Assembly: GCA_964552565.1 (NCBI GenBank)
Contig: CAZKGL010000001.1
Coordinates: 371,061-435,060, forward strand
From: an uncultured Gammaproteobacteria bacterium
GTDB taxonomy: Bacteria; Patescibacteriota; Patescibacteriia; UBA9934
Direction: 5' to 3'
DNA: 64,000 nt
Part shown: in pieces, positions 5,670 to 59,515 of the stretch
How positions within the stretch are numbered: the stretch's first letter is position 1
Layout of the letters: each line of letters begins with the position of its first letter
Program-made: the position numbers and the translations under genes
Notes under the pieces: model-generated
Database searches by the model: none
What the model was told of the DNA's origin: nothing
Seen by the model: the letters and a program-made list of their open reading frames with translations, nothing else

Positions 5670-6722
<1,053 letters not shown>

Positions 6723-42332: not shown

Positions 42333-42557
42333 CTACATCAGCCGTTTCAGTGAGAACTCGACGCGGAAAACCTCAGTATAAATATCAAGATCATATACCG
42401 CACCGCACCGTGCACATGTCACACGCTCTTTCGTTTGCATTGTTGTACGGATGTGGTGTTCGTCCATGAGGTTACGAATGGCCTGTGGCAGGTCCTCCCT
42501 GTACAGATCGCCGTCGTATTGTTCGGGAATGTGTTGGCAGTTTTCGCACAACTTCAT
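42333..42557 (-). CDS. Small zinc-ribbon protein
   Basis: 74 aa with CENC...CARC. Low GC. Confidence 0.4.
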   Translation of the reverse strand: MKLCENCQHIPEQYDGDLYREDLPQAIRNLMDEHHIRTTMQTKERVTCARCGAVYDLDIYTEVFRVEFSLKRLM

Positions 42558-42707: not shown

Positions 42708-43295
42708 ATGATTGAGGGGTCTTTCAAGGGGGTCAAACAGGCACCCGGGTCTCATCAAAGTGAGACAAATGGGACGATACGTCAGGGGGTCACCACAAAC
42801 GAAAATAGCGGAAATAAAGGGGTTTTAATAAATTCCAATATGCGAACAGAAGACGAACAAAGTAGGACGCTCACAGACGAAGAGATCGGGGACTTTGTGA
42901 GGTTCTTCGAGTTGCTTGCTCAAGTCGATAGACGACTTAAGGGATGGAAAGAGCGTCTCAAGATTGAACCGGAAGGATTCCCGATTAACAATGGGATTTA
43001 CGATTGCAACCTGTGTTGCCGATCTATGAAGGATTACGAGGGTTGGTACGACCAGTACGGATTGAAATGTCCGTTATGCCGAAAGGCGGTCAATGACGGC
43101 ATCGTGCCGGGATCGGCAGTCCTCGATGATACGACGTGGTTTTCGGTGAGTCAGTTGTTGACGAAATACGGATGGCATCATACGACCGTACACAAAAAAG
43201 CGCGGAGCGGAGAGCTGAAGGCGAGAATCGTCAAAAACGTCGATGGCAGGCCATACTTCTACGTGTTCTTGAAGGAGGAGAATCCCGGCATTTAA
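42708..43295 (+). CDS. Hypothetical protein with a CxxC...CPxC ribbon and a C-terminal excisionase/MerR-like HTH
   Basis: The C-terminus WFSVSQLLTKYGWHHTTVHKKARSGELKARIVK resembles Xis-family HTH_17. The start is uncertain. Confidence 0.4.
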   Translation: MIEGSFKGVKQAPGSHQSETNGTIRQGVTTNENSGNKGVLINSNMRTEDEQSRTLTDEEIGDFVRFFELLAQVDRRLKGWKERLKIEPEGFPINNGIYDCNLCCRSMKDYEGWYDQYGLKCPLCRKAVNDGIVPGSAVLDDTTWFSVSQLLTKYGWHHTTVHKKARSGELKARIVKNVDGRPYFYVFLKEENPGI

Positions 43296-43510
43296 GACTT
43301 CATGGTTACGCTACTCAGGCTATTTGGAAGATTTGTTTTTAGGGGTATTTACAGCTTGCTTTGCAATATCAGTTCGACAAATCCCACGTTTAGCGCACGC
43401 ATCCTCACATTCCTGCGCATACTGCGCCTCAAGATACTGAAAGCCGCATTGCTCGCAGGTAAAAAGTGTCTTGTCGTCTTTCTCGACCGTTTTGACCATA
43501 GAGATGGCGA

Positions 43511-43960
43511 TTAGTTTCGAAGCGCTTCTCGTTCTCTGAGAAAGGCCATTTGCGCGTCTTGTAAATGCATAACCGGACGACGTTCTTTGAGATACGCGAC
43601 CGCTTCGTCGGCTGTCTTACCTTGCTCAGCGACAAGATAGGCGGCGACAAGCACAGGCGCTCTTCCATGTCCGTTTTTGCAATGGATGAAGCACGGGATA
43701 TTCTTCCCTGCAAAGAAGCGCAACGCTGCAACGCCGAGATCGGCTTTCTCGTGTGACATAGCAGCATGGTCTTCGGTTGGAAGCCAAAGGAAAAAGTCGA
43801 CGCCGTACGGTTGGTCGATCCGCTCCTTCTCAAGGCTGATGGCAGCGCGCACTCCTCGAGCGATTAATGTATCGTCGAAGTGCGTGACGCAACAGGCATT
43901 CTGACCAATGAAAATCAGTGGGGTTATTTCCGAGTAATCAAAAGATTCGTGAACATGCAT
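43511..43960 (-). CDS. Dual-specificity (Cys-based) protein phosphatase
   Basis: CX5R P-loop HCKNGHGRAP. 149 aa. Last gene of a 4-gene operon. Confidence 0.8.
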   Translation of the reverse strand: MHVHESFDYSEITPLIFIGQNACCVTHFDDTLIARGVRAAISLEKERIDQPYGVDFFLWLPTEDHAAMSHEKADLGVAALRFFAGKNIPCFIHCKNGHGRAPVLVAAYLVAEQGKTADEAVAYLKERRPVMHLQDAQMAFLREREALRN

Positions 43961-43968
43961 AACGTAGT

Positions 43969-44223
43969 TTATGAAGCAATCTTCGCTACTAGCTCTCCTC
44001 GTTGATGCAGGGCTACCACATCATCGTAACCTCCCACGAATTCGTCGCCAATAAAAATCATCGGCACCGTTCTCCAGTTGTATTTTTCGCTCAAAGCCTC
44101 CGCCTCTGCGGCATCTGCAGCAAGGTTCTTTTCCTCAAATGGCACCTTGAGCGAAGTAAAAAGTTGTTTTGCAAGCATGCAATATGCACATCCTGGCGAA
44201 GTGTAAATTGTTACTTGTTTCAT
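43969..44223 (-). CDS. Glutaredoxin
   Basis: 84 aa with a CAYC active site and a TVP...GGYDD glutathione-binding pattern. Its ATG overlaps the upstream TGA. Confidence 0.85.
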   Translation of the reverse strand: MKQVTIYTSPGCAYCMLAKQLFTSLKVPFEEKNLAADAAEAEALSEKYNWRTVPMIFIGDEFVGGYDDVVALHQRGELVAKIAS

Positions 44224-45611
44224 ACAATGGCTTTCACGCTATAAGCGGCGGCACCGACCCCTTCTGCAAATGTCGGATACGCATGAATCATTTTTGCGAT
44301 GGTCGTGTACGGAATATTCGCGAACATCGCGAGCGCAATCTCGTGGACAATCTCAGCCGCAGCCTGACCTACGACGTGGCCGCCGAGCACGTGACCACTT
44401 TCCATGTCGACGATAATTTTTACAAGCCCGTCAGATTCGCCCGTGACGAGCGCCTTGCCGAGCATGGCGTACGGAGCGGTACCGATACCGACTTTCTTGC
44501 CCAGCTTCATCGCTTCTGCTTCCGTCACGCCAACCGACCCAACCTCCGGGGTGCAAAATGTCCCTCGTGGAACAACGCGAAGGTCTGATTGCACAGTATT
44601 GCCTTTTGCTATGTTTGTCGCGGCAATGGTTCCTTGCTCGTGCGCGACGTGGGTGAACAGCATTTGGCCAGCCGCATCGCCCGCAAAGTAGACCGAAGCA
44701 TTGGATATCGACTGCATGAACTCATTCAGTTTTGGCCGACCGCGTTCGTCGAGTGCAATGCTGGCTTTTTCGGGCTCAAGGTCGGCAATGACTGGACGCT
44801 TTCCAACGGCCACGAGAACCGCATTCGCCACGAGCGTTTCGCGTCTCTTTTCAGATCCGAGCTCTATAGTGACACGACGCCCATCTTCGTCCGTTCCCAC
44901 ATCGACAGCCTGAGCTGTGGTAAAAATTTTTACGCCGCGCTTTGTGAAAGCCGCTGCGACAATGCCGGCAATTTCGTCATCTTCACGCGGCAAAATGTGC
45001 GGGGCGAATTCAACTATTGTTACAAGCACGCCAAGTTCCGAGAGGATCTGTGCGGATTCCACGCCGATCGGACCACCACCAATAATGATGATGGATTTCG
45101 GCAACTTTTTCAGCGTTACGATGTCGTCGCTTGTGAGAAAGCCAGACTCTTTCAATCCGGGAATGGGCGGAATTACCGTCTCGGATCCAGTAGCAATAAT
45201 AAAATGTTTTGCAGTAACCCGTTCCTTCCCGACAGCAAGCGTATCGGGTGAAATAAACTTCGCCTTTCCGCGCAAGAGATCGATGCTGAGTCTTTCGAGT
45301 ACGCCCTCGATACGTCCTTCGCCGGTCAACGCATCAACGATGCGAATTTTGCGTTCCATGATTTCGCGAAGACGAAACGAAACGCGCGGGATACGGAGGC
45401 CAAACTCCCCCGCACGGTGGGCGAGGGAGATGACTTCCGACGATCTCAATAATGCCTTTGTCGGCACACAGCCCCAGTTTGGGCATTCGCCGCCAAGACG
45501 CTTCGCGGCCTCAACGAGCGCGATACTCTTTACCCCTGCTTCGCGCGCGGTTTCTGCCGCGGAGAGACCAGCGGAACCGGAGCCGATGATGATGAGATCG
45601 TATGAGCGCAT
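44220..45611 (-). CDS. Class I pyridine nucleotide-disulfide oxidoreductase (Lpd/glutathione-reductase-like)
   Basis: FAD motif GSGSAG, redox-active CPNWGC, an NAD(P) GxGxxG motif and a C-terminal HAYPTFAE His-Glu dyad. There is no MerA CC tail. Confidence 0.85.
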   Translation of the reverse strand: MRSYDLIIIGSGSAGLSAAETAREAGVKSIALVEAAKRLGGECPNWGCVPTKALLRSSEVISLAHRAGEFGLRIPRVSFRLREIMERKIRIVDALTGEGRIEGVLERLSIDLLRGKAKFISPDTLAVGKERVTAKHFIIATGSETVIPPIPGLKESGFLTSDDIVTLKKLPKSIIIIGGGPIGVESAQILSELGVLVTIVEFAPHILPREDDEIAGIVAAAFTKRGVKIFTTAQAVDVGTDEDGRRVTIELGSEKRRETLVANAVLVAVGKRPVIADLEPEKASIALDERGRPKLNEFMQSISNASVYFAGDAAGQMLFTHVAHEQGTIAATNIAKGNTVQSDLRVVPRGTFCTPEVGSVGVTEAEAMKLGKKVGIGTAPYAMLGKALVTGESDGLVKIIVDMESGHVLGGHVVGQAAAEIVHEIALAMFANIPYTTIAKMIHAYPTFAEGVGAAAYSVKAIV

Positions 45612-45615
45612 ACCA

Positions 45616-45780
45616 CTACATTGCCGCGTGATCGTGCTGTACGCCTTCTGCGCACTTCTGGCAGGCCGCAGGAGCGGGGGCACTTTCCGCACCAGCACAC
45701 ATTGGACACATTTCAGCTTCGTTCTCTGGCTTTTGCGGTGCCGGAACCGCTCCGCCGCAGGCTGTACAAACTTTTCCCAT
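45616..45780 (-). CDS. Small Cys-rich protein (three CxxC pairs)
   Basis: MGKVCTACGG...CPMCAG...CQKCAEG. First gene of the operon; ends 4 nt before the reductase start. Confidence 0.4.
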   Translation of the reverse strand: MGKVCTACGGAVPAPQKPENEAEMCPMCAGAESAPAPAACQKCAEGVQHDHAAM

Positions 45781-45893
45781 AGAAAAGAAATAAAGAATCA
45801 ACAACGACAGTATATCGCTTTGCAAGAAATACGCTTGTAGCACAGGCTACAAAACATTGGCTCCGCTGTGGATGAGTGGTACTCTCTCAGCAT

Positions 45894-46556
45894 ATGGATC
45901 GTGTCTGGTACATCAAGAATTTCAATCTCTTCGCTGGTATTCCCAAGGAGGAAATCATGCGCATTGCTGCCTCCGCCAACGATGAGCGACATAACAGTCG
46001 TGCGCTGTTGTATACGCCGCACGACCAGGAAACACGGCTCTTTCTGGTAAAGGAGGGTGAGGTATCGCTGTACCACGTCAAGGATGGGAAGCGCTTTGTT
46101 TTTGACGTCATGGGTCCGGGGACATTGTTTGGCAATGTTGGTATGCAGGAAGGTTCACTTTCTCATTTTGCAGAAGCCGCCGAAGGCACCCGCATCTGCA
46201 CGTTTTCTTCGGCTGACTTTCAGCAGATTATTTCGGCATATCCCGTGGTCATGATGCGGGCGTTTTCGTCACTTGCACATCGACTGGAAGATTACGAAAC
46301 GAAACTCGGAGAGACGCTGTCGGACGCGAAAGAAAAGATTTTGCACGAAATTGAGCGATATGAACAAAAGCGCACACCAAAATTTCTTGAGTGGCTTTCG
46401 GGTGAGGCGACGAAGCGTCAACTTACGCACGAGCATCTCGCAAAATTAACCGGACTTAATCGAGTGACGGTTACGCGGGCAATTCATGATCTTCAGGCCG
46501 AGGGAGAGATTGACGTCGACGAGCACGGAAAAATTGTTATCCACAATAGTTTGTAG
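45894..46556 (+). CDS. Crp/Fnr-family transcriptional regulator
   Basis: cNMP-binding beta-roll followed by a C-terminal HTH (LTHEHLAKLTGLNRVTVTRAIHDLQ). No Fnr-type Cys cluster. Divergent from the Grx operon. Confidence 0.8.
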   Translation: MDRVWYIKNFNLFAGIPKEEIMRIAASANDERHNSRALLYTPHDQETRLFLVKEGEVSLYHVKDGKRFVFDVMGPGTLFGNVGMQEGSLSHFAEAAEGTRICTFSSADFQQIISAYPVVMMRAFSSLAHRLEDYETKLGETLSDAKEKILHEIERYEQKRTPKFLEWLSGEATKRQLTHEHLAKLTGLNRVTVTRAIHDLQAEGEIDVDEHGKIVIHNSL

Positions 46557-47090: not shown

Positions 47091-47795
47091 ATGGGGATGT
47101 TTTTATTGGCGCTTGTCGCCGGTGCTATCACCGTTACGTCACCGTGTATCATCCCCATTCTTCCGATTATTCTTGGGTCGGTACTGAAGGATCATAAGTG
47201 GTATCCCGTGTACCTCGTGCTCGGGATGTCGACGACGTTCACGGTGCTCGGCATCCTGTTTGGTGCCTTTGGTAGTGCACTTCCGATTGATCGCGTTTTC
47301 CTGAATCAACTCGCCATCTGGCTTATCGGCCTCATGGGAATTGTTCTCCTCGTAAAACCACTTGGCGATCTGTTCTCGCGTGGCACATCTATGCTCACGT
47401 CGTGGCTTGGCTCGTATGGTCCGAAAGCAAACCAGCTCGGACAGCCGGGTGAGGCCTTTGCGCTCGGATCGCTCCTTGGCATCGTCTGGGCACCGTGCGC
47501 CGGACCGATCCTCGGGTCAATCATTTTGCTCGCGTCGGGAACCGGAAGTGTCGTAAAGGCCGGACTACTGCTCTTCACGTACTCAATTGGCGCAGGGATC
47601 CCCATGCTCCTCATTGCCTACGGCGGGAAACGAGCAGTAGCGGGTAAACAGTTCATCCAAGAACAATCCGGCAGATTGAAAATGGCATTCGGTGTCGTCT
47701 TGCTTATCTCGGCACTCCTCATGGCAACGGGGGTGTTTCGCGAGCTGGAATCGCTCATCGTGCCGTATGTTCCCACGTGGAGCACGCAACTCTAA
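47091..47795 (+). CDS. ccdA: Cytochrome c biogenesis protein CcdA / DsbD-beta-domain electron transporter
   Basis: Six TM helices with the two conserved Cys (TSPCIIPILP; WAPCAGPILG). Confidence 0.85.
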   Translation: MGMFLLALVAGAITVTSPCIIPILPIILGSVLKDHKWYPVYLVLGMSTTFTVLGILFGAFGSALPIDRVFLNQLAIWLIGLMGIVLLVKPLGDLFSRGTSMLTSWLGSYGPKANQLGQPGEAFALGSLLGIVWAPCAGPILGSIILLASGTGSVVKAGLLLFTYSIGAGIPMLLIAYGGKRAVAGKQFIQEQSGRLKMAFGVVLLISALLMATGVFRELESLIVPYVPTWSTQL

Positions 47796-47816
47796 CATTT
47801 GAATGTCTATCACCCT

Positions 47817-48074
47817 ATGTCGCTACTCGAATTCTATGGCGCTGAATGCCCACATTGCATGGCGATGATGCCGCTCATTGAACGGTTGAAAAAAGAAGGC
47901 TTTGCCATTGAACAGTTTGAAACCTGGCATAACGAGGAAAACGCCAACAAGTTGAAGGAATACGACAAAGGTTTCTGCGGCGGCGTGCCGTTCTTCATAA
48001 ACACCGAAAGCGGAAAATGGATCTGCGGATCTGAATCCTATGAAGCGCTCCGAGCTTGGGCAGAAGGAAAATAG
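47817..48074 (+). CDS. Thioredoxin-fold protein with a CPHC motif
   Basis: The GAECPHC motif. Short, ~85 aa. Confidence 0.6.
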   Translation: MSLLEFYGAECPHCMAMMPLIERLKKEGFAIEQFETWHNEENANKLKEYDKGFCGGVPFFINTESGKWICGSESYEALRAWAEGK

Positions 48075-48441
48075 CAGCGCTAGGGAAATTCTTCGCATAA
48101 CGGGCATTCCCATTTTGCTTGCATCCCTGTGCTGCCTGAGTCCGGTTATCCTTGTGCTTTTAGGACTCACGACAACGACGTTTGCCGCTTCATTGTCCGA
48201 CACCCTTTACGGACAATATCGCTGGGTGTTCCGACTCGTGGGCTTCGTCGCACTTGCCGTATCGATTATCTGGCATCTGCGAAAGCGAAGGAAGATTTGC
48301 ACATTGGATCAGGCGAAGCGCCAGCGACACAAAATTGTTAACCTCATACTGCTCTCCGTTATCACCGCTATTCTTGGATATGTTTTCTGGCTCTACGTGG
48401 TCGTGGAATATATCGGCAAACTTCTCAATATTTGGAACTAA
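48040..48441 (+). CDS. Small membrane protein with vicinal Cys in TM1 (MerT/MerF-like)
   Basis: ILLASLCCLSPVILVLLG resembles the MerT CC helix. The start overlaps the previous gene by 35 nt. Confidence 0.4.
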   Translation: MKRSELGQKENSSAREILRITGIPILLASLCCLSPVILVLLGLTTTTFAASLSDTLYGQYRWVFRLVGFVALAVSIIWHLRKRRKICTLDQAKRQRHKIVNLILLSVITAILGYVFWLYVVVEYIGKLLNIWN

Positions 48442-48458
48442 TATAACCCCTTCAATCT

Positions 48459-49175
48459 ATGACAGAAAATACAACGCCGCCCGCTAGCTTCTTCAGTGGA
48501 AATCCTAAGATGATATTCGTTTTTGGTCTCGTGGCAGGCATCGCACTCACGTCCTTGGCCGGAGATCTGTTCGCGAATACTGGATCTGCAACCGGTACAG
48601 ACACCGCCGTCGTGAATGCGAACAATACCGGGCCATCTGCTGCGGCCTCCGCAAAAACGCTTGCCGCAGTAACGGAGGACGACCACGTACGAGGCGATCT
48701 TGAAAAAGCAAAGGTCGTGCTTATCGAGTACTCGGATTACGAGTGCCCTTTTTGCGGTAGGCACCATCCCACTATGCTCGATGTAGCAGAGCAATACGGC
48801 GACGATGTCGCTTGGGTGTATCGCCATTTTCCGCTCACGTCCATTCATCCGCAAGCAATGCCAGCAGCGCTCGCCGCCGAGTGTGCGAACGAACAAGGAA
48901 AGTTTTGGGAATATACGGATGCGCTCTTTGAAAACCAGAGCGATCTCAGCTCTTCATTTTATACCGAACTTGCTGGTGACCTTGGCATGAATACGTCAAA
49001 ATTCAGCGACTGCGTGGAAAGCGAGAAATATGCGGCGAGAGTAAAGGCCGATATCGCGTCAGGACAAGCCGCTGGTGCCACGGGCACGCCAGCAACATTC
49101 GTGAATGGCACGTTGGTGTCTGGCGCTGTACCGCTTTCGACATTCACAGGCCTTATAGACGCGGCACTCAAATAA
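48459..49175 (+). CDS. DsbA/BdbD-like thiol-disulfide oxidoreductase
   Basis: TM anchor, CPFC active site and the DSBA-fold cis-Pro region. Confidence 0.8.
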   Translation: MTENTTPPASFFSGNPKMIFVFGLVAGIALTSLAGDLFANTGSATGTDTAVVNANNTGPSAAASAKTLAAVTEDDHVRGDLEKAKVVLIEYSDYECPFCGRHHPTMLDVAEQYGDDVAWVYRHFPLTSIHPQAMPAALAAECANEQGKFWEYTDALFENQSDLSSSFYTELAGDLGMNTSKFSDCVESEKYAARVKADIASGQAAGATGTPATFVNGTLVSGAVPLSTFTGLIDAALK

Positions 49176-49257: not shown

Positions 49258-49623
49258 ATGCAAATACTTTTCACCGTCGGTCACATCGTTCTCGGTCTGT
49301 TCTTCCTCATGATGGGCATGATGCACTTCATGAAGATGCGTGACATGACCGCGTATGCCAACATGAAGGGATTGCCAATGCCGTCGCTGTCCGTCGCGGT
49401 AACTGGAATGGTTCTTGCTCTTGGCGGCGCAGGAGTAATTTTTCAAGTCGCGCTCCCTTGGGCATACGGAGCACTGGTCGTATTCCTCGTATCAGCGGCA
49501 TTCCTCATGCATAACTTCTGGGCTGCCAAGGATGCACAGTCAAAGATGAACGACATGGTGAACTTCCAGAAAAATCTCGCCCTTGCCGCCGCCCTCTTGA
49601 TGCTCATCACGCTTCAAGCGTAA
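49258..49623 (+). CDS. DoxX-family membrane protein (island copy)
   Basis: 121 aa. Its C-terminus NFQKNLALAAALLMLITLQA is nearly identical to that of the core DoxX at 36350-36730. Confidence 0.8.
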   Translation: MQILFTVGHIVLGLFFLMMGMMHFMKMRDMTAYANMKGLPMPSLSVAVTGMVLALGGAGVIFQVALPWAYGALVVFLVSAAFLMHNFWAAKDAQSKMNDMVNFQKNLALAAALLMLITLQA

Positions 49624-49632
49624 TTCAATAGT

Positions 49633-50040
49633 GTGAGCAACCTCGTTTTTATTTATCAGGCAAACTCTGGCATTCTTGCGAATATACCGGGAGCCATCGC
49701 GAAAGCGTTTGGCGGAAAGAGCGTGTGTTCGCTGTGCAACATCACGAACGGCCCCTTTCGTGAAAAACCTGAATGGGAAACGTTCGTCGCGTCACTGCAA
49801 GAAAAGCCCGAGATCTATCACGCTAACGAAATACCGATTGACATTGCGTCATTCCTAAAAAAGAACGAGCACCCCATTCCCGTTGTCCTTGAGCGAAATG
49901 GATTTGAATTTACGGTCGCCATGTCTTCCGACGACCTCGATGCATGTCAGGCGGATCCCACCTGCCTCGCCAAGAAACTTACATCCTATACACGCACCTC
50001 GTGTAGCAATGGGGTGTGTTCGCTGAAACAGCCGAGTTGA
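49633..50040 (+). CDS. Hypothetical CxxC protein (possible thioredoxin-fold)
   Basis: GTG start and a CSLC motif. 135 aa. Confidence 0.4.
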   Translation: MSNLVFIYQANSGILANIPGAIAKAFGGKSVCSLCNITNGPFREKPEWETFVASLQEKPEIYHANEIPIDIASFLKKNEHPIPVVLERNGFEFTVAMSSDDLDACQADPTCLAKKLTSYTRTSCSNGVCSLKQPS

Positions 50041-50242
50041 GCTCAGAAAATATGATAGGAAGAATATTAGAAGTTTCCGGTGAGCTTTGCATCGGTTATC
50101 TCGCCACACGAGTGCACAGCCGCGTCGTGAAGGAACATCGCATTGATGCTGCTGTTCTTCGTGAAATGAAAATGGAAAAACATGTAGGAACGGTCGGGAT
50201 GGCACTTATCCTTGTTGGATTTATTTTAGAATCACAAGGAAT

Positions 50243-51592
50243 ATGATTTTACAAAATTGGTGGTACACAACCTTATTGGACGCATCGGTGCGCCACCAGC
50301 CGCCTTTGCGTGGTGCGCTCAAGTGCGACGTTGCGGTTATCGGCGGCGGCATGGCAGGACTCCACGCGGCGCTCCAGCTGAGCCGGATGGGTAAAAAAGT
50401 AATCCTTCTCGAACGAAACATTTGTGGCGGAAGTTCCACAGGAAAAAGCGCAGGGTTTCTTACGCCAGATAGCGAGCTCGAACTCAGCCAACTTGTCAGA
50501 AGATACGGCGTAGACGGTGCAAAAACTGTCTGGAATATGCCCGTGCAAGGCGTCAAACTTATCAAGCAGACGATCAACGATTTTAATATTGCGTGCGATT
50601 TTCGCAAACAAGATAGTCTATTCGTCGGTATTGGTAAGAGTGGCGCCGAGGACGTCGCGAGTGAGGCAAAATCAAGAAAGAGATTGGGATTTGCCTCCAC
50701 AAAGTACAACAAAGACGAGCTCAAAAAGGTGAACGCAGGGCTTGGCTACGAGGCGGGTATCAGATACGACGATACCTATTCCATAAACCCGCTGCTCTAC
50801 GCGCAGGGTTTGAAGCAAGCGTTAATGGACAGCGGCGTACAGATTTTTGAAAGCACCGAGGTGGTGCGCATTGAAGACGGGGCTGCGATTACCCATCTTG
50901 GATCCGTCATGGCGGATAATTTTATCGTTTGCATCGACAAAATGAAGTCGGAATTCAGTTCCGTCGCGAAGCAGACCTATCATGCTCAAACATTTCTTTC
51001 CATTAGCGAACCGCTAGACGACAACGATATTGCAGCAATATTCCCGGATGGCGAAGTGCAGTGTTGGGATTCACGACTTGTCTACAGCTATTATCGACTG
51101 ACACCCGATAAGCGGCTGTTGCTCGGCGGCGGGAGCGCGCTAACGACTTTTTCTCCTAACGATATAAATTCCCCGGCCATCATCAATCAGGTGATCGCGG
51201 ACTTCAAAAAAAGGTTTCCAAAGCTGGAACACGTCGCATTTGTTCAGTACTGGCCTGGGCGCATCGATACCACGAAGGACATCATGCCAATCATCGATTG
51301 GTTTGACGCGCCGAACGTTCAGTATGTTTTGGGCTGTGTCGGTTTGCCGTGGGCAAGTTTTTGCGGAAAGTATGCCGCAGAGCGTCTGTATGAACCACGC
51401 ATCTGTCAAAAGTACTGCATGTATCTCGGTGCTCATCGCTCATTTTTCATCCCGCCATGGCTTCAGAGTATCGTTGGTAAAATGATCAGTTTTTCTCTCA
51501 ACAATGCGTACGCCAAATACTTCGAGAAGGATAGGCCTCAAATGAGCCAGATCATGCATGCCCACAAAGGCGAGCTTCCTTCCCATCGATAA
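50243..51592 (+). CDS. FAD-dependent oxidoreductase (DAO family)
   Basis: N-terminal VAVIGGGMAGLHAALQL Rossmann motif. 449 aa. Confidence 0.8.
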   Translation: MILQNWWYTTLLDASVRHQPPLRGALKCDVAVIGGGMAGLHAALQLSRMGKKVILLERNICGGSSTGKSAGFLTPDSELELSQLVRRYGVDGAKTVWNMPVQGVKLIKQTINDFNIACDFRKQDSLFVGIGKSGAEDVASEAKSRKRLGFASTKYNKDELKKVNAGLGYEAGIRYDDTYSINPLLYAQGLKQALMDSGVQIFESTEVVRIEDGAAITHLGSVMADNFIVCIDKMKSEFSSVAKQTYHAQTFLSISEPLDDNDIAAIFPDGEVQCWDSRLVYSYYRLTPDKRLLLGGGSALTTFSPNDINSPAIINQVIADFKKRFPKLEHVAFVQYWPGRIDTTKDIMPIIDWFDAPNVQYVLGCVGLPWASFCGKYAAERLYEPRICQKYCMYLGAHRSFFIPPWLQSIVGKMISFSLNNAYAKYFEKDRPQMSQIMHAHKGELPSHR

Positions 51593-52150: not shown

Positions 52151-55100
52151 CTACTGCAACTCGCCACCCGCCTTGAAGGATCTAATGTCTGCAGCCACGC
52201 GGCGCAGGTGTACGGGCAGTAACCGCATCCGAATCGCGAGAAGTGATACAGCGATCTCGATCGCCTTATTCGCTTGCGGATGCCTACCAATGTACCGAAG
52301 AAGGCTATGCAGTATTCCTCGCTCCCTAATGCCAAGACGCTTGTCCGTATAGATATACATTATCAAATCGCCAAGTATCGTCCCGATCGGCTGGACGGAG
52401 GTCTCCTTCTTCACCAACTCATTCATCAATAGCTCAACATTTTGGTCAAGCAGATTGAAGTTCGCAACTTCGAGATAGCGAACAATCATTGCGGTGTCAA
52501 TCGTTACATACGAATATCCGCACTTCAACAATTCCATTCTCCCGGCGTCATACTCCTCCTCAGACACCAGATTATGTTTACGCGCATTTCGAAGAAGTTC
52601 CTGACTTGTTGCAATGTCGAGACCCCCCAATGTTTTTATTGCATCACGGCCGAGGTACGAATCGTCACACACTACAGGTAGCCCTCTCTGTGAAGCAATT
52701 ACCATAGTCGTGCCCGATGATCCGTACTGCTCCTCAAACTGCTTCCTATCAGGAGAAACTGGACGTGCGTAGCCGACTCGTGTACAGGTCTCAAAGAAAG
52801 CTTGCACCTTTGTCAGAAGCTGCAGACTTTTCTCGTACGCCTCGGCGCTGACATCATTCATCATGACTGAGCCGTCGGCGCTGCCCTGTAGAAAAGATTG
52901 CCCTTTCTTAGAAAGCTTCGTGTACTCCTCGATTAGAGAGGAGAGCTGATCGCAAGTAAACTGATCAACATACACTTGCGTAAATGCCTTCTTTATCAAA
53001 TCCAAACGATCGAGGCGCGCCAATGTCAGAGCGGCACTCATGTCTACGATCACCTCTTTTTCCTTAAAAAGGATATTCTCACTTTCCGCAGCCTCTTGCG
53101 TATTTCCGAGGAAGGCATAAACCGGGAAGTCTTTCGCGGTTATCACATCGGACCACACCTCGAAATACTTCTTGGAGATGAGAGTTGAGATCTGATTCAA
53201 GGATAGGCGCTTGGCCTTATACTCCGCGATGACTTTATCGATCGCCTTGGCCCTTGCTGAGACCACCTCACCGATTTTCTTCATTCCATCTTGATCGGCT
53301 GAAAACTTCATGATCGCCTCTTGTCCCGGGGCGCGATTCTCGAAATTTTCCATTATGTCCTGATAGTACCTGACGTGCTTATCCTGAACAGCACCTTCCT
53401 GATCACTTACATGGTGAAAGACAGAGATGTACGCCAACTGAATCTCAGGGTTAGTGAAGTTTCTATCCAAAGCACTGAAGGCTGTTTCAAGTGCTTCGGC
53501 ATATTCGCCATTCAAGACAAGAAGGTTCGCAACTTGCATGAGTTGCTCCGCTTCGCTCGCCGAGTGCAACGCCTTCTTGATGTAAGGTGAATAATCTGCG
53601 ATAGACCCCGAAAGTCTAAATCTGCACTCAAGGAAGCCTATAACATCACCGAAAACGAAGTGATCCTCATCTATTAACTTTTTGTATTTCTCTGCTGCGG
53701 TCTCAAGGTCTCCAAGTACATGGGTGAAGTTCGCCGAAACCCGGAGAAGAGTGTCGGATTGAAGCGCCTTTTCGCTAGCCAAAACCATCAGAGCTTGCAA
53801 CTGTTCATACTTCTTTGCGTTGAATAGAGCAATTGCATATCTTTCAAAATTTTCTGCCGACGGATCTCCCTCGATAGCCAAGGCTAAAATTTCTGCGGCC
53901 TTCTCAAAATCTCCTATCTTCAAGAGAAAGGTTGAGTAATCATCGAGAATTATTTGATGAATTGGATTTGCCTCTACGGCCGCGTCCATCGCACGCTCGA
54001 AGTATTCTCCTGAAAGTTCGAGCTGATTTTGGTGCGCATGAAATATGGCAACCGATCTAAACGCCAAAGGATTGTCCGGGCATTCGGCGAGCAACTCATC
54101 TCTAACCTTTAGAGCCTTATCGGTCTCTTGGAGATCCAAATGGCCTAACATCAACAATCGCATCGTTTCAATATAAACCTCATCTCGATCGTCGCTCCTA
54201 TTCCCAGACAACAGTTCGACTGTCTTGCCCGGCTTCTTGCTGAAGAGGTACGCGGCCGCCAAATCCCTCCTCAAGTGATCTGGTAACGTGGTAATTTTTG
54301 AATACGCCTCTAACGCTTCGATCACGTATTCGTAACGATGGGAGATAAGACCCGCTCTCGACTTATTCACCAACGCCTCTATATTTTCGGCATCAAGTGA
54401 AAAGGCCCGATTAGCATATTCGATGCAGTCGTCATATTGTTTAAGAACCAAGTTGGCGGCCGATAGGTTGGTATAGAGGGGTGCCTCAAACTGTTTTGGC
54501 GCTTGCCCCTCAAACAACTTTACAGCCTCGGTCAAAGCCTTTTTCGCTTCTTCAAAATCCTTACAGATTGCATCCGGGATAATCGCGCCTTGTAATCTTC
54601 CTTCAAGATCCCTCGAGTGAAGCAGTAAAATTTCTTGAGCGAAAAACAATTTATACCAAACCTCCTTATCATCGCTTTCCTTGAGTTTTTTATATGCATC
54701 AGCTGCGCCCTTGTGGTCACGCAACTTACTCGCCTTCAGCGCGAAAATAAAGTCTTTGGTTGCTTGATTTTCAATGTCAGCAATGTCCCGATCAACTGCA
54801 TCGATGTCATTCAAGTCAAGATGGCAACGCGCGCGAATAGACAAGGCATGATCTCTATCCTGTAGATCTCTCGCTAGTACCATGTTAATCATTCCGAGAG
54901 CAGTTCCCGGATCCTTGGCGGCCAAGAATGCCTGTGCGTGGTTTGCGCCCGCCTTCTCATTTTCCGAATCAAGTGCGATTGCTTTTTCAAATAACAATTT
55001 AGCTTTATCCGTTTCGCCAAGCCGCAATTCGCATAGTCCAAGATTGTTATGAATCTTGGACATAGTCTTCTTGCCGACTCCACCGGCAGTCGGAAGATCC

Positions 55101-55771
55101 GCAAGAATATCGTACCCATCGCGGCGGGCGCCCGTGTAATCTCCCTCATCTATTTTCTTGACCATCCGCTTGTTTCTTGCATCGAATAGACCCGAAAGTT
55201 CCCCACTCTCTATTACAGAAGATTGCAAAGAGGCGACAGCTGCCTGAAGCGCCGCAAGCTGTTGCTGTGTTGTTTCAAAGATATCCGGATGACGTTCCTT
55301 TACTGTCGGATGCTGATCTGCCAGTTGCCTCAAATGCTCAGCGGAGTACACGAGGTATTTGCAGTTGTTCTCTCGTGTCAGCTCTGCAAGAACATCGTGC
55401 TGCTCCTTACGCAGTGCGGCAGGGGTAACAAACACCCAAGTATCAAACGGGTACATCCCACGTTGTTCGATCGCCTTACTGAAATCAGAACGAATTTTCT
55501 TGTTGTAAGCATCGTTCGACGACCGGGTACTCAAAAGCGGAGTATAAATTGCGAAAAAAATCTTGGCTGATGTTGTGTACCCATCCATCCCATCATCGCC
55601 ACCCCTGTCGTCAATAACAAGAAAATCTTGATGCTCCGCGAGCAAGAGATCTTTGACTAACGCTTCAAATACTTTGTTGTTGTCAATGTGCTCGATTTTC
55701 TTCGTGTACTTATATGCGTCACTATCCGGCATATTCTTATCGTAAGGAAGAACCCTGCCGACATGAAACAC
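52151..55771 (-). CDS. 1206-aa TPR-repeat array protein with an N-terminal Mrr/restriction-endonuclease-like domain
   Basis: More than 900 aa of TPR-like helical repeats. The N-terminus FEALVKDLLLAEHQDFLVIDDRGGDDGMDGY resembles the Mrr_cat signature. Low GC. Confidence 0.75.
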   Translation of the reverse strand: MFHVGRVLPYDKNMPDSDAYKYTKKIEHIDNNKVFEALVKDLLLAEHQDFLVIDDRGGDDGMDGYTTSAKIFFAIYTPLLSTRSSNDAYNKKIRSDFSKAIEQRGMYPFDTWVFVTPAALRKEQHDVLAELTRENNCKYLVYSAEHLRQLADQHPTVKERHPDIFETTQQQLAALQAAVASLQSSVIESGELSGLFDARNKRMVKKIDEGDYTGARRDGYDILADLPTAGGVGKKTMSKIHNNLGLCELRLGETDKAKLLFEKAIALDSENEKAGANHAQAFLAAKDPGTALGMINMVLARDLQDRDHALSIRARCHLDLNDIDAVDRDIADIENQATKDFIFALKASKLRDHKGAADAYKKLKESDDKEVWYKLFFAQEILLLHSRDLEGRLQGAIIPDAICKDFEEAKKALTEAVKLFEGQAPKQFEAPLYTNLSAANLVLKQYDDCIEYANRAFSLDAENIEALVNKSRAGLISHRYEYVIEALEAYSKITTLPDHLRRDLAAAYLFSKKPGKTVELLSGNRSDDRDEVYIETMRLLMLGHLDLQETDKALKVRDELLAECPDNPLAFRSVAIFHAHQNQLELSGEYFERAMDAAVEANPIHQIILDDYSTFLLKIGDFEKAAEILALAIEGDPSAENFERYAIALFNAKKYEQLQALMVLASEKALQSDTLLRVSANFTHVLGDLETAAEKYKKLIDEDHFVFGDVIGFLECRFRLSGSIADYSPYIKKALHSASEAEQLMQVANLLVLNGEYAEALETAFSALDRNFTNPEIQLAYISVFHHVSDQEGAVQDKHVRYYQDIMENFENRAPGQEAIMKFSADQDGMKKIGEVVSARAKAIDKVIAEYKAKRLSLNQISTLISKKYFEVWSDVITAKDFPVYAFLGNTQEAAESENILFKEKEVIVDMSAALTLARLDRLDLIKKAFTQVYVDQFTCDQLSSLIEEYTKLSKKGQSFLQGSADGSVMMNDVSAEAYEKSLQLLTKVQAFFETCTRVGYARPVSPDRKQFEEQYGSSGTTMVIASQRGLPVVCDDSYLGRDAIKTLGGLDIATSQELLRNARKHNLVSEEEYDAGRMELLKCGYSYVTIDTAMIVRYLEVANFNLLDQNVELLMNELVKKETSVQPIGTILGDLIMYIYTDKRLGIRERGILHSLLRYIGRHPQANKAIEIAVSLLAIRMRLLPVHLRRVAADIRSFKAGGELQ

Positions 55772-57895: not shown

Positions 57896-59515
57896 ATGCA
57901 ATCAGCCGTTGTCATTTACGCCCGCAAGTCGAGCGAACAAGAGGATCGTCAGATCTTGAGTATCGATTCTCAGATCGCCGAGCTTAAGCAACTTGCCCTG
58001 AAGTTTGAGGTAACCCCGAAGTACGTTATTAGCGAATCCTTCAGCGCAAAGGCTCCCGGTCGAGAAAAGTTCAACGAGATGGTTGCTCTTATTGAGGCTG
58101 GAAAAGTAGACACGATTTTTGCTTGGCATCCCGATCGTCTGTCTCGCAATGCAGTAGACGCTGCGTGGCTTATTCACCTTCTTGATACTGGTAAGCTCAA
58201 AGCAATCATCACGCCGAGCCAATCTTTCAAAAATACTCCGAACGATAAGTTTCTTTTCAACCTCCTCACCAGTCAGGCGAAGCTTGAAAACGACAACAAG
58301 AGTATCAACGTAAAACGAGGGTTGAAGACTAAAGTCGAGATGGGCTGCTACCCCGGTGTTGCTCCGCTTGGCTATCTGAACAACAAGTACAAGGAGAAGG
58401 GTAAGAAGGACGTTTATCTCGATGCTGAACGTGGCCCGATCCTCCGCAAGATCTTCGACCTAATTCTTGAAGGCATGCCTCCCATGCGAGCCTTGGAAAT
58501 CGCAAATGAAAAGCTTGACTTCCGCACCCCTCACGGAAATAAGCTCGCACGTACGACACTCTACCGTGTTCTCACGATGCCCTTTTATTACGGTGAGTTC
58601 GAATACCCGAAAGGTAGTGGCAAATGGTACAAGGGCAACCACGAACCCCTGATCACAGTTGAGGAATACGACCGAGTTCAAACTTTTCTTGGACGAGACG
58701 GTAGACCACGGGCGCGCCAGAGCCTCTATAACTTCCCCTACAAGGCGATGATGCGCTGCGGGGAGTGTGGCGCCGCTATTACCATTGAGCGCAAGGTAAA
58801 GCGTCAGAAGAATGGTAATGTCCACGAGTACGTCTATTATCACTGTACGAAGCGCATTAAAAGGGACTGCACGCAGAAATGCGTCGAGGCAAAAGAGATT
58901 GATGACCAGATCGCCGAGACCTTGGCTTCCGTGAAGATCCCTCAGGAGTTCCATGAATGGGCCATTGAGGCGTTACGCGAGGAAAATGAAGCCGAGACCT
59001 CGTCACGCGCGCAGACTATGAAACGCCAACGCTCCTCATATGACGAGACGGTTCGGATGATGGATGAGCTGCTCGATATGCGCCTCAAGAAACAGATCTC
59101 CGATGAGCAGTTCGCTGACAAGAAGGCATCCTTGGAACACGATAAAACGCGCTATAAGGAGCTTCTCAACGATACCGACCGTAGGATCGACTGGTGGATG
59201 AATGTCGCGGGGGAGGCCATGCAATTCCTTTGTGAAGCCCAACAGAAATTTATCGAAGGCGACGCAGACCGAAAGACCCGCATTCTGAACGCCCTTGGTT
59301 CGAACTTCACCCTTCTCGACGGAAAACTAGTCGTTTCTGTGAAGGAAACGCTTCTTTCGGTTACCGAGCAATATCACCAGATGAAACAGGCTGGAAAAAT
59401 GTTCGAACCTCTGAAATTTGGCTCTACAAAACAAAGAACCGACACCATTTCTGATGTCAGTTCCATGTGGCTCCGGGGGTGGGGTTCGAACCCACGACCA
59501 TCTCGTTACACTTGA
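57896..59515 (+). CDS. Large serine recombinase (integrase)
   Basis: Resolvase catalytic region YARKSSEQEDRQ...SIDSQ, a recombinase domain, a zinc ribbon CGECG...HCTKRIKRDC and a coiled coil. 539 aa. Confidence 0.9.
   Translation: MQSAVVIYARKSSEQEDRQILSIDSQIAELKQLALKFEVTPKYVISESFSAKAPGREKFNEMVALIEAGKVDTIFAWHPDRLSRNAVDAAWLIHLLDTGKLKAIITPSQSFKNTPNDKFLFNLLTSQAKLENDNKSINVKRGLKTKVEMGCYPGVAPLGYLNNKYKEKGKKDVYLDAERGPILRKIFDLILEGMPPMRALEIANEKLDFRTPHGNKLARTTLYRVLTMPFYYGEFEYPKGSGKWYKGNHEPLITVEEYDRVQTFLGRDGRPRARQSLYNFPYKAMMRCGECGAAITIERKVKRQKNGNVHEYVYYHCTKRIKRDCTQKCVEAKEIDDQIAETLASVKIPQEFHEWAIEALREENEAETSSRAQTMKRQRSSYDETVRMMDELLDMRLKKQISDEQFADKKASLEHDKTRYKELLNDTDRRIDWWMNVAGEAMQFLCEAQQKFIEGDADRKTRILNALGSNFTLLDGKLVVSVKETLLSVTEQYHQMKQAGKMFEPLKFGSTKQRTDTISDVSSMWLRGWGSNPRPSRYT
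59468..59510 (-). tRNA. tRNA 3' exon-like half (anticodon-stem 3' strand, variable loop, T-arm GTGGGTTCGAACCCCAC, acceptor CCCCGGA-G-CCA)
   Basis: The reverse complement reads tgtaacgagatggtcgtgggttcgaaccccacccccggagcca. It pairs with the 5' half at 60056-60087. Confidence 0.5.

Follow-up and report, generated by a model that had tools for sequence, protein, structure and literature searches.

The question raised by the locus described here is which reaction is served when a cysteine-dependent phosphatase is encoded in one operon with a glutaredoxin and a flavoprotein disulfide reductase. The locus lies in a stretch of 64,000 nucleotides (contig CAZKGL010000001.1 of assembly GCA_964552565.1, positions 371,061 to 435,060 of the forward strand) from an uncultured bacterium of the Patescibacteriota, and the whole of this stretch is called the window below. 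Patescibacteria and DPANN archaea are symbionts of extremely small size, and hardly anything is known of how they cope with stress. The original prediction took the operon for a three-component system resembling the glutaredoxin-coupled arsenate reductases and mentioned a redox-regulated phosphatase as an equal alternative. It is this alternative that fits best. The reading that we put first, tentatively and at somewhat less than an even chance, is that of a redox- or metal-gated phosphatase, which is encoded on a Crp-controlled island for thiol and soft-metal stress and is recycled by the reductase and the glutaredoxin. It is followed in our ranking by a metal relay and by a metabolic phosphatase linked to NADPH (reduced nicotinamide adenine dinucleotide phosphate), which are placed equal, and then by an arsenate-type reductase. 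If the phosphatase is indeed gated by redox state or metals, it provides a testable handle on how thiol damage is sensed and repaired in these organisms.

As read from the open reading frames of the window, five genes form a tight array on the minus strand, given here from the leading gene onwards (DSP, dual-specificity phosphatase; FAD, flavin adenine dinucleotide):

45616..45780, minus strand: Cys-rich peptide of 54 residues with CTAC, CPMC and CQKC and the C-terminal sequence HDHAAM (open reading frame and orthologues)
44220..45611, minus strand: class-I FAD-dependent pyridine-nucleotide disulfide reductase of 463 residues (Pfam Pyr_redox_2, 215 bits; Pyr_redox_dim, 104 bits)
43969..44223, minus strand: dithiol glutaredoxin of 84 residues with CAYC, RTVP and GGYDD (PF00462, 68.8 bits)
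43511..43960, minus strand: DSP-fold cysteine phosphatase of 149 residues, a member of the family here called CC-DSP (PF00782, 48.6 bits, cut-off 33.5)
43320..43499, minus strand: DUF7128 small cysteine protein of 59 residues, C-x2-C-x13-C-x3-C-x5-C (PF23447, 30.2 bits)

This tightly packed array is one tightly coupled operon. The stop codon of the peptide lies 4 nt ahead of the reductase ATG, the TGA of the reductase overlaps the glutaredoxin ATG as ATGA, 8 nt separate the glutaredoxin stop from the ATG of the phosphatase, and the DUF7128 gene starts 11 nt downstream of the phosphatase. The four frames described earlier are all present on the minus strand, the ATGA overlap can be read directly from the sequence, and the leading peptide has the three CxxC pairs ascribed to it. 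The gap before the phosphatase had been given as 9 nt, and the operon as one of four genes; the tight coupling stands, whereas the array extends to a fifth gene, that of DUF7128.

In the mechanism that we propose, the locus would form the cytoplasmic part, one half, of an island for thiol-redox and soft-metal stress under control of a Crp/Fnr-type regulator. NAD(P)H would reduce the FAD and the Cys43-Cys48 centre of the reductase, which in turn would keep the glutaredoxin reduced, either directly, via a small thiol, or via the Cys-rich peptide. The glutaredoxin may have two clients, namely an export branch through CcdA, by which reducing power would be delivered to redoxins in the envelope, and the phosphatase. 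The latter would be an active P-loop enzyme, of which the Cys94 thiolate could be captured reversibly by Cys23-Cys24, as a disulfide or as a complex with a thiophilic metal. Captured Cys94 would be freed by glutaredoxin and reductase, and the enzyme would need reductant to turn over.

Fold, active site and possible substrates of the phosphatase

The protein is a CX5R cysteine phosphatase, as had been predicted, with the P-loop HCKNGHGRAP at residues 93-102 and a match to PF00782 above the cut-off; other characteristic residues are C23-C24, W59-x-P61, D64, R128 and Q137. The fold had been left open between the DSP, rhodanese/Cdc25 and low-molecular-weight protein tyrosine phosphatase (LMW-PTP) types. 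The AlphaFold2 (AF2) model, with a pLDDT (predicted local distance difference test) of 90 and a pTM (predicted template modelling score) of 0.88, has DUSP8, VHZ/DUSP23, DUSP5 and PTPMT1 as its best Foldseek matches (TM-scores 0.79-0.86). The top 50 matches in the PDB are all DSP/PTP-fold proteins (0.71-0.86), the LMW-PTP, rhodanese/Cdc25 and ArsC/Spx folds being absent from them. The predicted fold is that of a DSP, and not of an LMW-PTP or a rhodanese/Cdc25 protein. Assignment as a known ArsC or LMW-PTP was rejected: the phosphatase matches no ArsC model of NCBIfam, where PRK12361 (25.8 bits) was the sole return.

CC-DSP is a newly defined family with a distinctive cysteine triad, and its members are widely distributed among both Patescibacteria and DPANN archaea. 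Among the 190 unique sequences in which motifs were counted, 186 carry the vicinal cysteine pair ([IVL]G-x3-CC) and at least 171 the P-loop HC[KQ]NGHGR, with HCxxGHGR found in every variant listed and variation confined to positions 95-96. The residue after the P-loop Arg is Ala in 174 of the 190 and Ser or Thr in seven. In the 35-sequence alignment used for residue invariance, R128 and Q137 show no variation and K95 and H132 hardly any. At the general-acid position the window protein has Asp (WLPTEDH); across 80 species, Asp is present in 55, Asn in 23 (29%), often without an acidic neighbour, and another residue in two.

These features are relevant for the type of substrate. In protein tyrosine phosphatases, Ser or Thr after the P-loop Arg speeds hydrolysis of the phospho-enzyme, while Ala disfavours fast hydrolysis. 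The frequent loss of the Asp and the Ala after the Arg disfavour a classical phosphoprotein phosphatase and are more in line with a substrate that has a good leaving group, or with non-hydrolytic chemistry. Q137, which is invariant, and the basic pocket formed by K95, H93, H98, R100, R128 and H132 speak for the hydrolysis of a small molecule with a strong negative charge. Rather than a phosphoprotein, the substrate is probably a small phosphate compound that is strongly anionic and has a good leaving group, or else an oxyanion.

An oxyanion is also the substrate in the reading that was originally proposed, that of an arsenate reductase. In its present form, the protein would be a DSP-fold reductase of arsenate or a similar oxyanion, with Cys94 as attacking residue, Cys23/24 or a thiol as resolving group, and glutaredoxin and reductase for recycling. 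Such chemistry needs no general-acid Asp, in agreement with the Asn in 23 of the 80 species, and the frequent Ala after the Arg disfavours fast phospho-enzyme hydrolysis, as is established in PTP enzymology. Furthermore, a CX5R loop with extra, near-invariant cysteines is co-transcribed here with a redoxin and a flavoprotein reductase, and ArsR-family regulators are found at 21 of 80 related loci. The known redoxin-coupled arsenate reductases (R773 ArsC with glutaredoxin, the LMW-PTP-type ArsC of pI258 with thioredoxin, and the Cdc25-type Acr2p/LmACR2) likewise combine a cysteine in an oxyanion-binding loop with extra cysteines and with wiring to a redoxin and a flavoprotein reductase. However, the cassette phosphatase differs from them in its fold, in matching no family model and in its gene context, since the associated genes are of mercury, thiol and pentose-phosphate type. 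No arsenite-pump-like family is recurrent among the neighbours at the 80 loci or present among the annotated genes of the window, which counts against the arsenate reading because reduction without efflux would be harmful. The invariant Q137 speaks against it too, since by analogy with a Q-loop it may position a hydrolytic water. On this evidence, we consider an arsenate reductase quite improbable.

For a gated phosphatase, the relevant comparison is with the PRL (PTP4A) enzymes. These share with CC-DSP the DSP fold, a P-loop with Ala after Arg (HCVAGLGRAP in PRL, HCKNGHGRAP here) and the W-x-P...D loop, and sequence matches in the PDB have E = 3e-5. In PRL, the phospho-enzyme is long-lived owing to this Ala, and another cysteine forms a regulatory disulfide that is reduced by thioredoxin-related proteins; a similar redoxin-reduced disulfide to the catalytic cysteine is proposed here. 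PRL uses a single Cys49, whereas CC-DSP has a vicinal pair after strand 16-20; moreover, CC-DSP has no prenylation motif, is prokaryotic, is linked in operons to redox genes and has lost the Asp in 29% of species. In the AF2 model, strand 16-20 is followed by a helix, of which the cysteine pair occupies the beginning. Since this strand presumably flanks the catalytic strand, as in the DSP topology, the pair could be within reach of Cys94.

Genes that accompany the phosphatase in other genomes

When surveyed at one genome per species, relatives of the phosphatase are present in 233 species, nearly all of them Patescibacteria and several of them Woesearchaeota or Nanoarchaeia. Neighbouring genes were analysed at the 80 best species-level loci, with counts that come from different windows and methods; related loci are numbered L and protein representatives P. 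What emerges is a recurrent module in which NADPH supply is combined with flavoprotein reductases, redoxins, export through CcdA and proteins of mercury type. At 43 of the 80 loci, one or more of its genes lie on the same strand within 3 kb, and the density of module genes within 3 kb is 3.2 times that at 3-8 kb (binomial p = 3e-13, computed without correction for shared ancestry). CcdA is found on the same strand within 3 kb at 22 loci. Further members of the module are DUF3179, a CxxC family (16 loci), glutaredoxin (15) and DUF7128 (12). Directly next to the phosphatase, CcdA (14 loci) and DUF7128 (12 loci) are encountered most often. Unbiased clustering of the open reading frames within 6 kb yielded TlpA-type redoxins at 33 loci and the ArsR-family regulators at 21, and clustering also gave a 69-residue membrane protein at 11 loci and a DoxX-like protein at eight. 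Selenocysteine forms of DUF3179, MerT and DUF1573 are known from the literature.

The flavoprotein partner varies, three class-I subtypes being found directly beside the phosphatase. A class-I reductase of the CPN type is encoded directly beside the phosphatase in the window, L001 and L170, and one of the CTW type in L069. A true MerA, ending in SCC, adjoins it in L050, L065 and L087 and is nearby in L076, while a TrxB-type reductase lies inside the module at five other loci, in L051 directly after the glutaredoxin. This repeated pairing with redoxins and flavoprotein reductases in many genomes supports the logic of a redoxin-recycled cysteine enzyme, which is the part of the original prediction that survives the change of function. 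The TrxB-type reductases of the module (CVTCDG; L051 567-1529, L083 2086-3051, L047, L048 and L062) have a conserved C-terminal extension, HKVHGELCPFHA, of which the His and Cys residues could serve for metal binding or form a mobile redox tail.

The MerA neighbours suggest a different function, that of a non-canonical mercury or soft-metal system. In such a system Cys23-Cys24 (with Cys94), the peptide and DUF7128 would bind Hg(II) or Cu(I) and pass the metal to the MerA-like reductase, a MerT-like protein would mediate uptake, and CcdA, thioredoxin and DsbA would protect envelope thiols. A C-terminal CC tail is present in only three phosphatases, all encoded next to or near MerA (L050 2593-3111, L087 729-1229 and L076 8001-8465); they end in ECC or EPCC, resembling the MerA proteins of the same three loci, which end in SCC, and those of L076 and L087 have Asn at the general-acid position. 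Besides the MerT-like protein of the window, MerT-like relatives adjoin the phosphatase in L039, L052, L078 and L080, and a weakly MerC-like family is found at seven loci. The window reductase has Tyr at a MerA-specific position ('YPTFAEG' aligned to 'YLTMAEG'), and the cysteine pattern of DUF7128 appears TRASH-like by inspection. On the other hand, the window reductase has no C-terminal cysteine pair and does not reach the cut-off of the MerA model, many members of its family have no mer-type neighbours, and the CC tail is missing in most family members. A pure carrier would, moreover, require neither a near-invariant P-loop nor the invariant R128 and Q137, and we regard a metal relay of this kind as unlikely.

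It is also conceivable, although doubtful, that CC-DSP represents a new, non-hydrolytic use of the DSP fold, being a thiol-dependent enzyme by which a toxic oxyanion or a thiophilic metal is reduced or passed on via a disulfide or metal cascade of Cys94/Cys23-Cys24, and which is recycled by the flavoprotein-redoxin line, with Hg(II) being delivered to MerA via the CC tail in mer-type loci. If the protein is a reductase or metal relay, it would represent a fourth structural solution to redoxin-coupled detoxification of metalloids or metals.

A third type of function is suggested by carbohydrate metabolism. Genes for a fusion of glucose-6-phosphate and 6-phosphogluconate dehydrogenase (G6PD-6PGD), phosphoglucose isomerase (PGI) and transaldolase are interspersed among those of the phosphatase and its module at 10 of the 80 loci, and in two family representatives (P0260 and P0279) a ribulose-phosphate 3-epimerase domain is fused to CC-DSP. 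These genes and fusions, together with the basic active site and a weak resemblance to PF22741, a DSP domain found fused to NAD kinase, are consistent with a thiol-gated metabolic phosphatase for a sugar (bis)phosphate or an NADP-type nucleotide, which would tune pentose-phosphate flux and with which the reductase and glutaredoxin would only share a regulon. The match to PF22741 is below the cut-off, however (19 versus 27 bits), the epimerase-fused forms retain the CC pair but have an altered P-loop, HCELG[RH]TRSP, and the island in the window contains no pentose-phosphate gene. The case is built on gene neighbourhood, and we consider it as improbable as the metal relay. The G6PD-6PGD fusion, of about 785 residues, lies inside the thiol-redox module in L023 (4650-7004) and at five other loci. 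With respect to other multi-domain matches, apparent fusions to thiol domains were rejected as tandem DSP repeats of other families, and the N-terminal domains of P0264 and P0292 gave no Pfam match.

Proposed electron supply: the reductase, the glutaredoxin and the peptide

For the gated phosphatase that we prefer, the properties of the proteins that would supply the electrons are important. The reductase starts at MRSYD, as do its homologues, and has the redox motif GGECPNWGC. It had been labelled glutathione-reductase-like, a description that has to be revised: the best NCBIfam scores are those for Lpd (382, cut-off 408.8) and MerA (TIGR02053, 359.5, cut-off 454.45), as against 270 for PRK06116 (cut-off 480) and 256 for TIGR01424 (cut-off 606), which model glutathione reductase. 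Judged by its sequence, the enzyme appears Lpd/MerA-like and not a glutathione reductase. Assignment as glutathione reductase, Lpd or MerA proper was rejected, every curated model scoring below its cut-off and the catalytic His and the C-terminal CC being missing.

In alignments with PDB sequences, the segment HAYPTFAE has Tyr at the position of the catalytic His of Lpd and glutathione reductase, with the Glu kept, and YPTFAEG aligns with 'APYLTMAEG' of MerA (5x1y) in such a way that the Tyr matches the MerA Tyr. The 28 family members that were aligned share the signature GGECPNxxC, and all have Tyr or Phe at the His position (HA[YF]PT); the redox pair C43/C48 (CxxxxC) is invariant. The window enzyme ends in ...AAAYSVKAIV, and a C-terminal cysteine pair is present in no member of the 28-member alignment. 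The strand ending in VTIVEF suggests a preference for NADH over NADPH, since the VEF motif is read in this way by the rules for Rossmann folds.

The similarity to Lpd and glutathione reductase covers the overall sequence, the FAD and NAD domains and the redox-active disulfide, with Thermus E3 as the best PDB match (E = 5e-77), whereas the differences concern the redox motif (GGECPNxxC versus GGTC[LV]NVGC), the replacement of the catalytic His by Tyr or Phe and the scores below the curated cut-offs. With MerA and the mer system, the locus shares the class-I flavoprotein with its CxxxxC pair and Tyr for His, a MerT-like vicinal-CC protein and, in relatives, MerA itself beside the phosphatase; it differs in that the window reductase has no C-terminal cysteine pair and no NmerA domain, scores below the MerA cut-off and carries the VEF motif, by inspection likely of NADH type. 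As far as we are aware, Patescibacteria and DPANN archaea lack lipoate-dependent complexes, and the GGECPN/Tyr family may be the missing disulfide reductase of such organisms. The parts described here all belong to known superfamilies. A full-text literature search gave no description of the CC-DSP family or its module; this family, the His-to-Tyr reductase family and the shared module appear to be undescribed in the searchable literature.

The glutaredoxin scores 73 bits with the Grx3 equivalog model, under the cut-off of 90, and its TVP and GGxDD motifs are those of the glutathione-type, thiol-binding class-I glutaredoxins. The leading peptide is retained in L001 and L169 with all six cysteines, the N-terminal sequence MGKVCTACG and the C-terminal sequence GV.H[DE]H[GA]AM, while among three lineages 14-22 of the 34-38 identical residues are encoded by different codons. 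Because the cysteines are kept while many codons differ synonymously, the peptide is taken as the product of a real gene, conserved at the protein level. Domain models gave only weak double-zinc-ribbon matches (E about 0.03), and the peptide may be described as zinc-ribbon-like. No homologues were found in the protein database, which can be attributed to the fact that it is rarely called as a gene. Fusion of the peptide to the reductase in homologues was rejected, as the longer homologues have over-called starts.

Similar cassettes, for which a search had been suggested, do occur in other Patescibacteria, although not always complete. The recurrence of the gene order in L001/L008, L168/L169 and L170, and the conservation of the peptide, show that the arrangement did not arise by chance. 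L001, the closest relative, and L008 have the cassette with a phosphatase that is 83% identical, but the L001 glutaredoxin gene (5822-6076) is truncated and frame-shifted and reads into the phosphatase start, so that glutaredoxin is dispensable in this lineage. L168 and L169 retain the trio of peptide, reductase and glutaredoxin, including the ATGA overlap, as well as the divergent CcdA operon, whereas the phosphatase is missing; in L170 reductase, phosphatase and DUF7128 are present and glutaredoxin is absent. Common to L001/L008 and L168/L169 are the trio and the divergent set of genes for Crp, thioredoxin, CcdA, the MerT-like protein and DsbA. Because of these partial forms, two separable modules can be distinguished that are joined in the window: a module for reductant supply and export, and the phosphatase-DUF7128 pair. 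In L168 (6751-8612) and L169 (6087-7948) the trio is followed by two polytopic membrane proteins, of 428 and about 192-205 residues, and the first of these has no Pfam match.

Several of these observations weigh against a phosphatase that is gated by redox state or metals and recycled by this reductase and glutaredoxin. The glutaredoxin is not obligatory among close relatives, being decayed in L001 and absent from L170, and the reductase lacks the acid-base His that is expected of a disulfide reductase. The reductase family is, furthermore, common in Patescibacteria without module neighbours; in a metagenome scan anchored on the reductase, most matches were distant paralogues, and no module genes were found near those that truly belong to the family. 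Because the family is so widespread without these neighbours, the reductase may be a housekeeping enzyme that is only loosely tied to the phosphatase. The region around the cysteine pair (residues 21-30) is the least confident part of the AF2 model, with a mean pLDDT of 68. Finally, the enrichment of module genes is not corrected for shared ancestry, and about half of the loci have no module genes, many of the contigs in question being short.

The divergent operon and the island

The export branch and the regulator of the proposed mechanism are encoded by a set of genes that diverges from the phosphatase operon:

45836..45851, unstranded: palindrome TGTAGCACAGGCTACA, TGTAG-N6-CTACA, in the divergent intergenic region; operator candidate of the Crp/Fnr regulator
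45876..46556, plus strand: Crp/Fnr-family regulator (cNMP_binding, 46.4 bits; HTH_Crp_2, 37.4 bits); same arrangement in L001 and L168/L169
46604..47086, plus strand: thioredoxin-like protein with WCPTC and a hydrophobic N-terminal segment (PF00085, 44.1 bits)
47091..47795, plus strand: CcdA/DsbD-type transmembrane thiol-disulfide electron transporter (PF02683, 66.1 bits)
47799..48074, plus strand: small thioredoxin-like protein with ECPHC (weak Thioredoxin match of 19 bits, below cut-off)
48040..48441, plus strand: MerT-like membrane protein (PF02411, 34.8 bits, cut-off 32.9)
48459..49175, plus strand: DsbA-like thiol:disulfide oxidoreductase (Thioredoxin_4, 96.3 bits; DSBA, 71.7 bits)
49258..49623, plus strand: DoxX-like protein (DoxX, 29.9 bits)
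49633..50040, plus strand: 135-residue protein with CSLC; L039 and L085 encode homologues close to the phosphatase
50016..50246, plus strand: small open reading frame, with a likeness to the 69-residue membrane-protein family that was judged by eye

The palindrome is unique in the window, the number expected by chance being 0, and its 5-6-5 layout is typical of operators of the Crp family. L001 (TGTAACAATTGCTACA) as well as L168 and L169 (TGTAGCAAAGGCTACA) have the same site, placed identically between the two operons, and TGTAR-N6-YTACA is found at the matching intergenic position in every lineage with the divergent architecture. A candidate terminator at 45834..45853 was rejected, since it coincides with this operator palindrome. 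Scanning for sigma-70 promoters and terminators gave matches that were no more frequent than in shuffled sequence.

The first thioredoxin-like protein is probably membrane-anchored, because of its hydrophobic N-terminal segment as seen by inspection, and the adjoining of this thioredoxin-fold protein (PF00085) and a DsbD_TM protein (PF02683) is the combination that marks a CcdA/DsbD pathway. The small thioredoxin-like protein that follows is kept at the same position in L001 and L168, and the MerT-like protein has a vicinal CC in its first predicted helix (LLASLCCLSP). The presence of CcdA, a thioredoxin and a DsbA-like protein beside a cytoplasmic reductase/redoxin pair is shared with the TrxB-TrxA-DsbD/CcdA-TlpA/DsbC pathway and with copper-stress systems of the Scs type. 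In the window, however, the pair consists of an Lpd/MerA-like flavoprotein and a Grx3-like glutaredoxin instead of TrxB and TrxA, while other module loci use the TrxB type, and the phosphatase and DUF7128 have no counterpart in the DsbD and Scs systems.

The G+C content is 0.60-0.68 across the first 41 kb of the window and falls to 0.45-0.56 at about 41.4-60 kb. Near the end of this low-GC region a large serine recombinase is encoded (57896..59515), with genes for helix-turn-helix and DUF5659 proteins upstream. Because of the drop in G+C and the recombinase, the operon is considered to be part of an island of about 18 kb that was acquired by horizontal transfer; no convincing direct repeats that could be attachment sites were found flanking the low-GC island. 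A serine recombinase also adjoins the reductase, phosphatase and DUF7128 genes in L170, and for this reason the cassette looks mobile. The relatives of the phosphatase and those of the reductase are both labelled Patescibacteria by their sources.

Some further genes of the region may be mentioned. Just downstream of the operon lie a 195-residue open reading frame (42708-43295, plus strand) with the Cys-rich stretch CNLCCRSMKDYEGWYDQYGLKCPLCRK and a 74-residue frame (42333-42557, minus strand) with two CxxC-like pairs, both without a Pfam match. Inside the island, a protein of 1206 residues (52151-55771, minus strand) combines tetratricopeptide repeats with a PIN domain that belongs to the TPR-GreAB-C-PIN type (PF20698, 43.7 bits), and is possibly a conflict or defence gene. 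The thiol module is followed by a DAO-type FAD oxidoreductase of 449 residues (50243-51592, plus strand), on which a gene for a DUF1905 protein converges.

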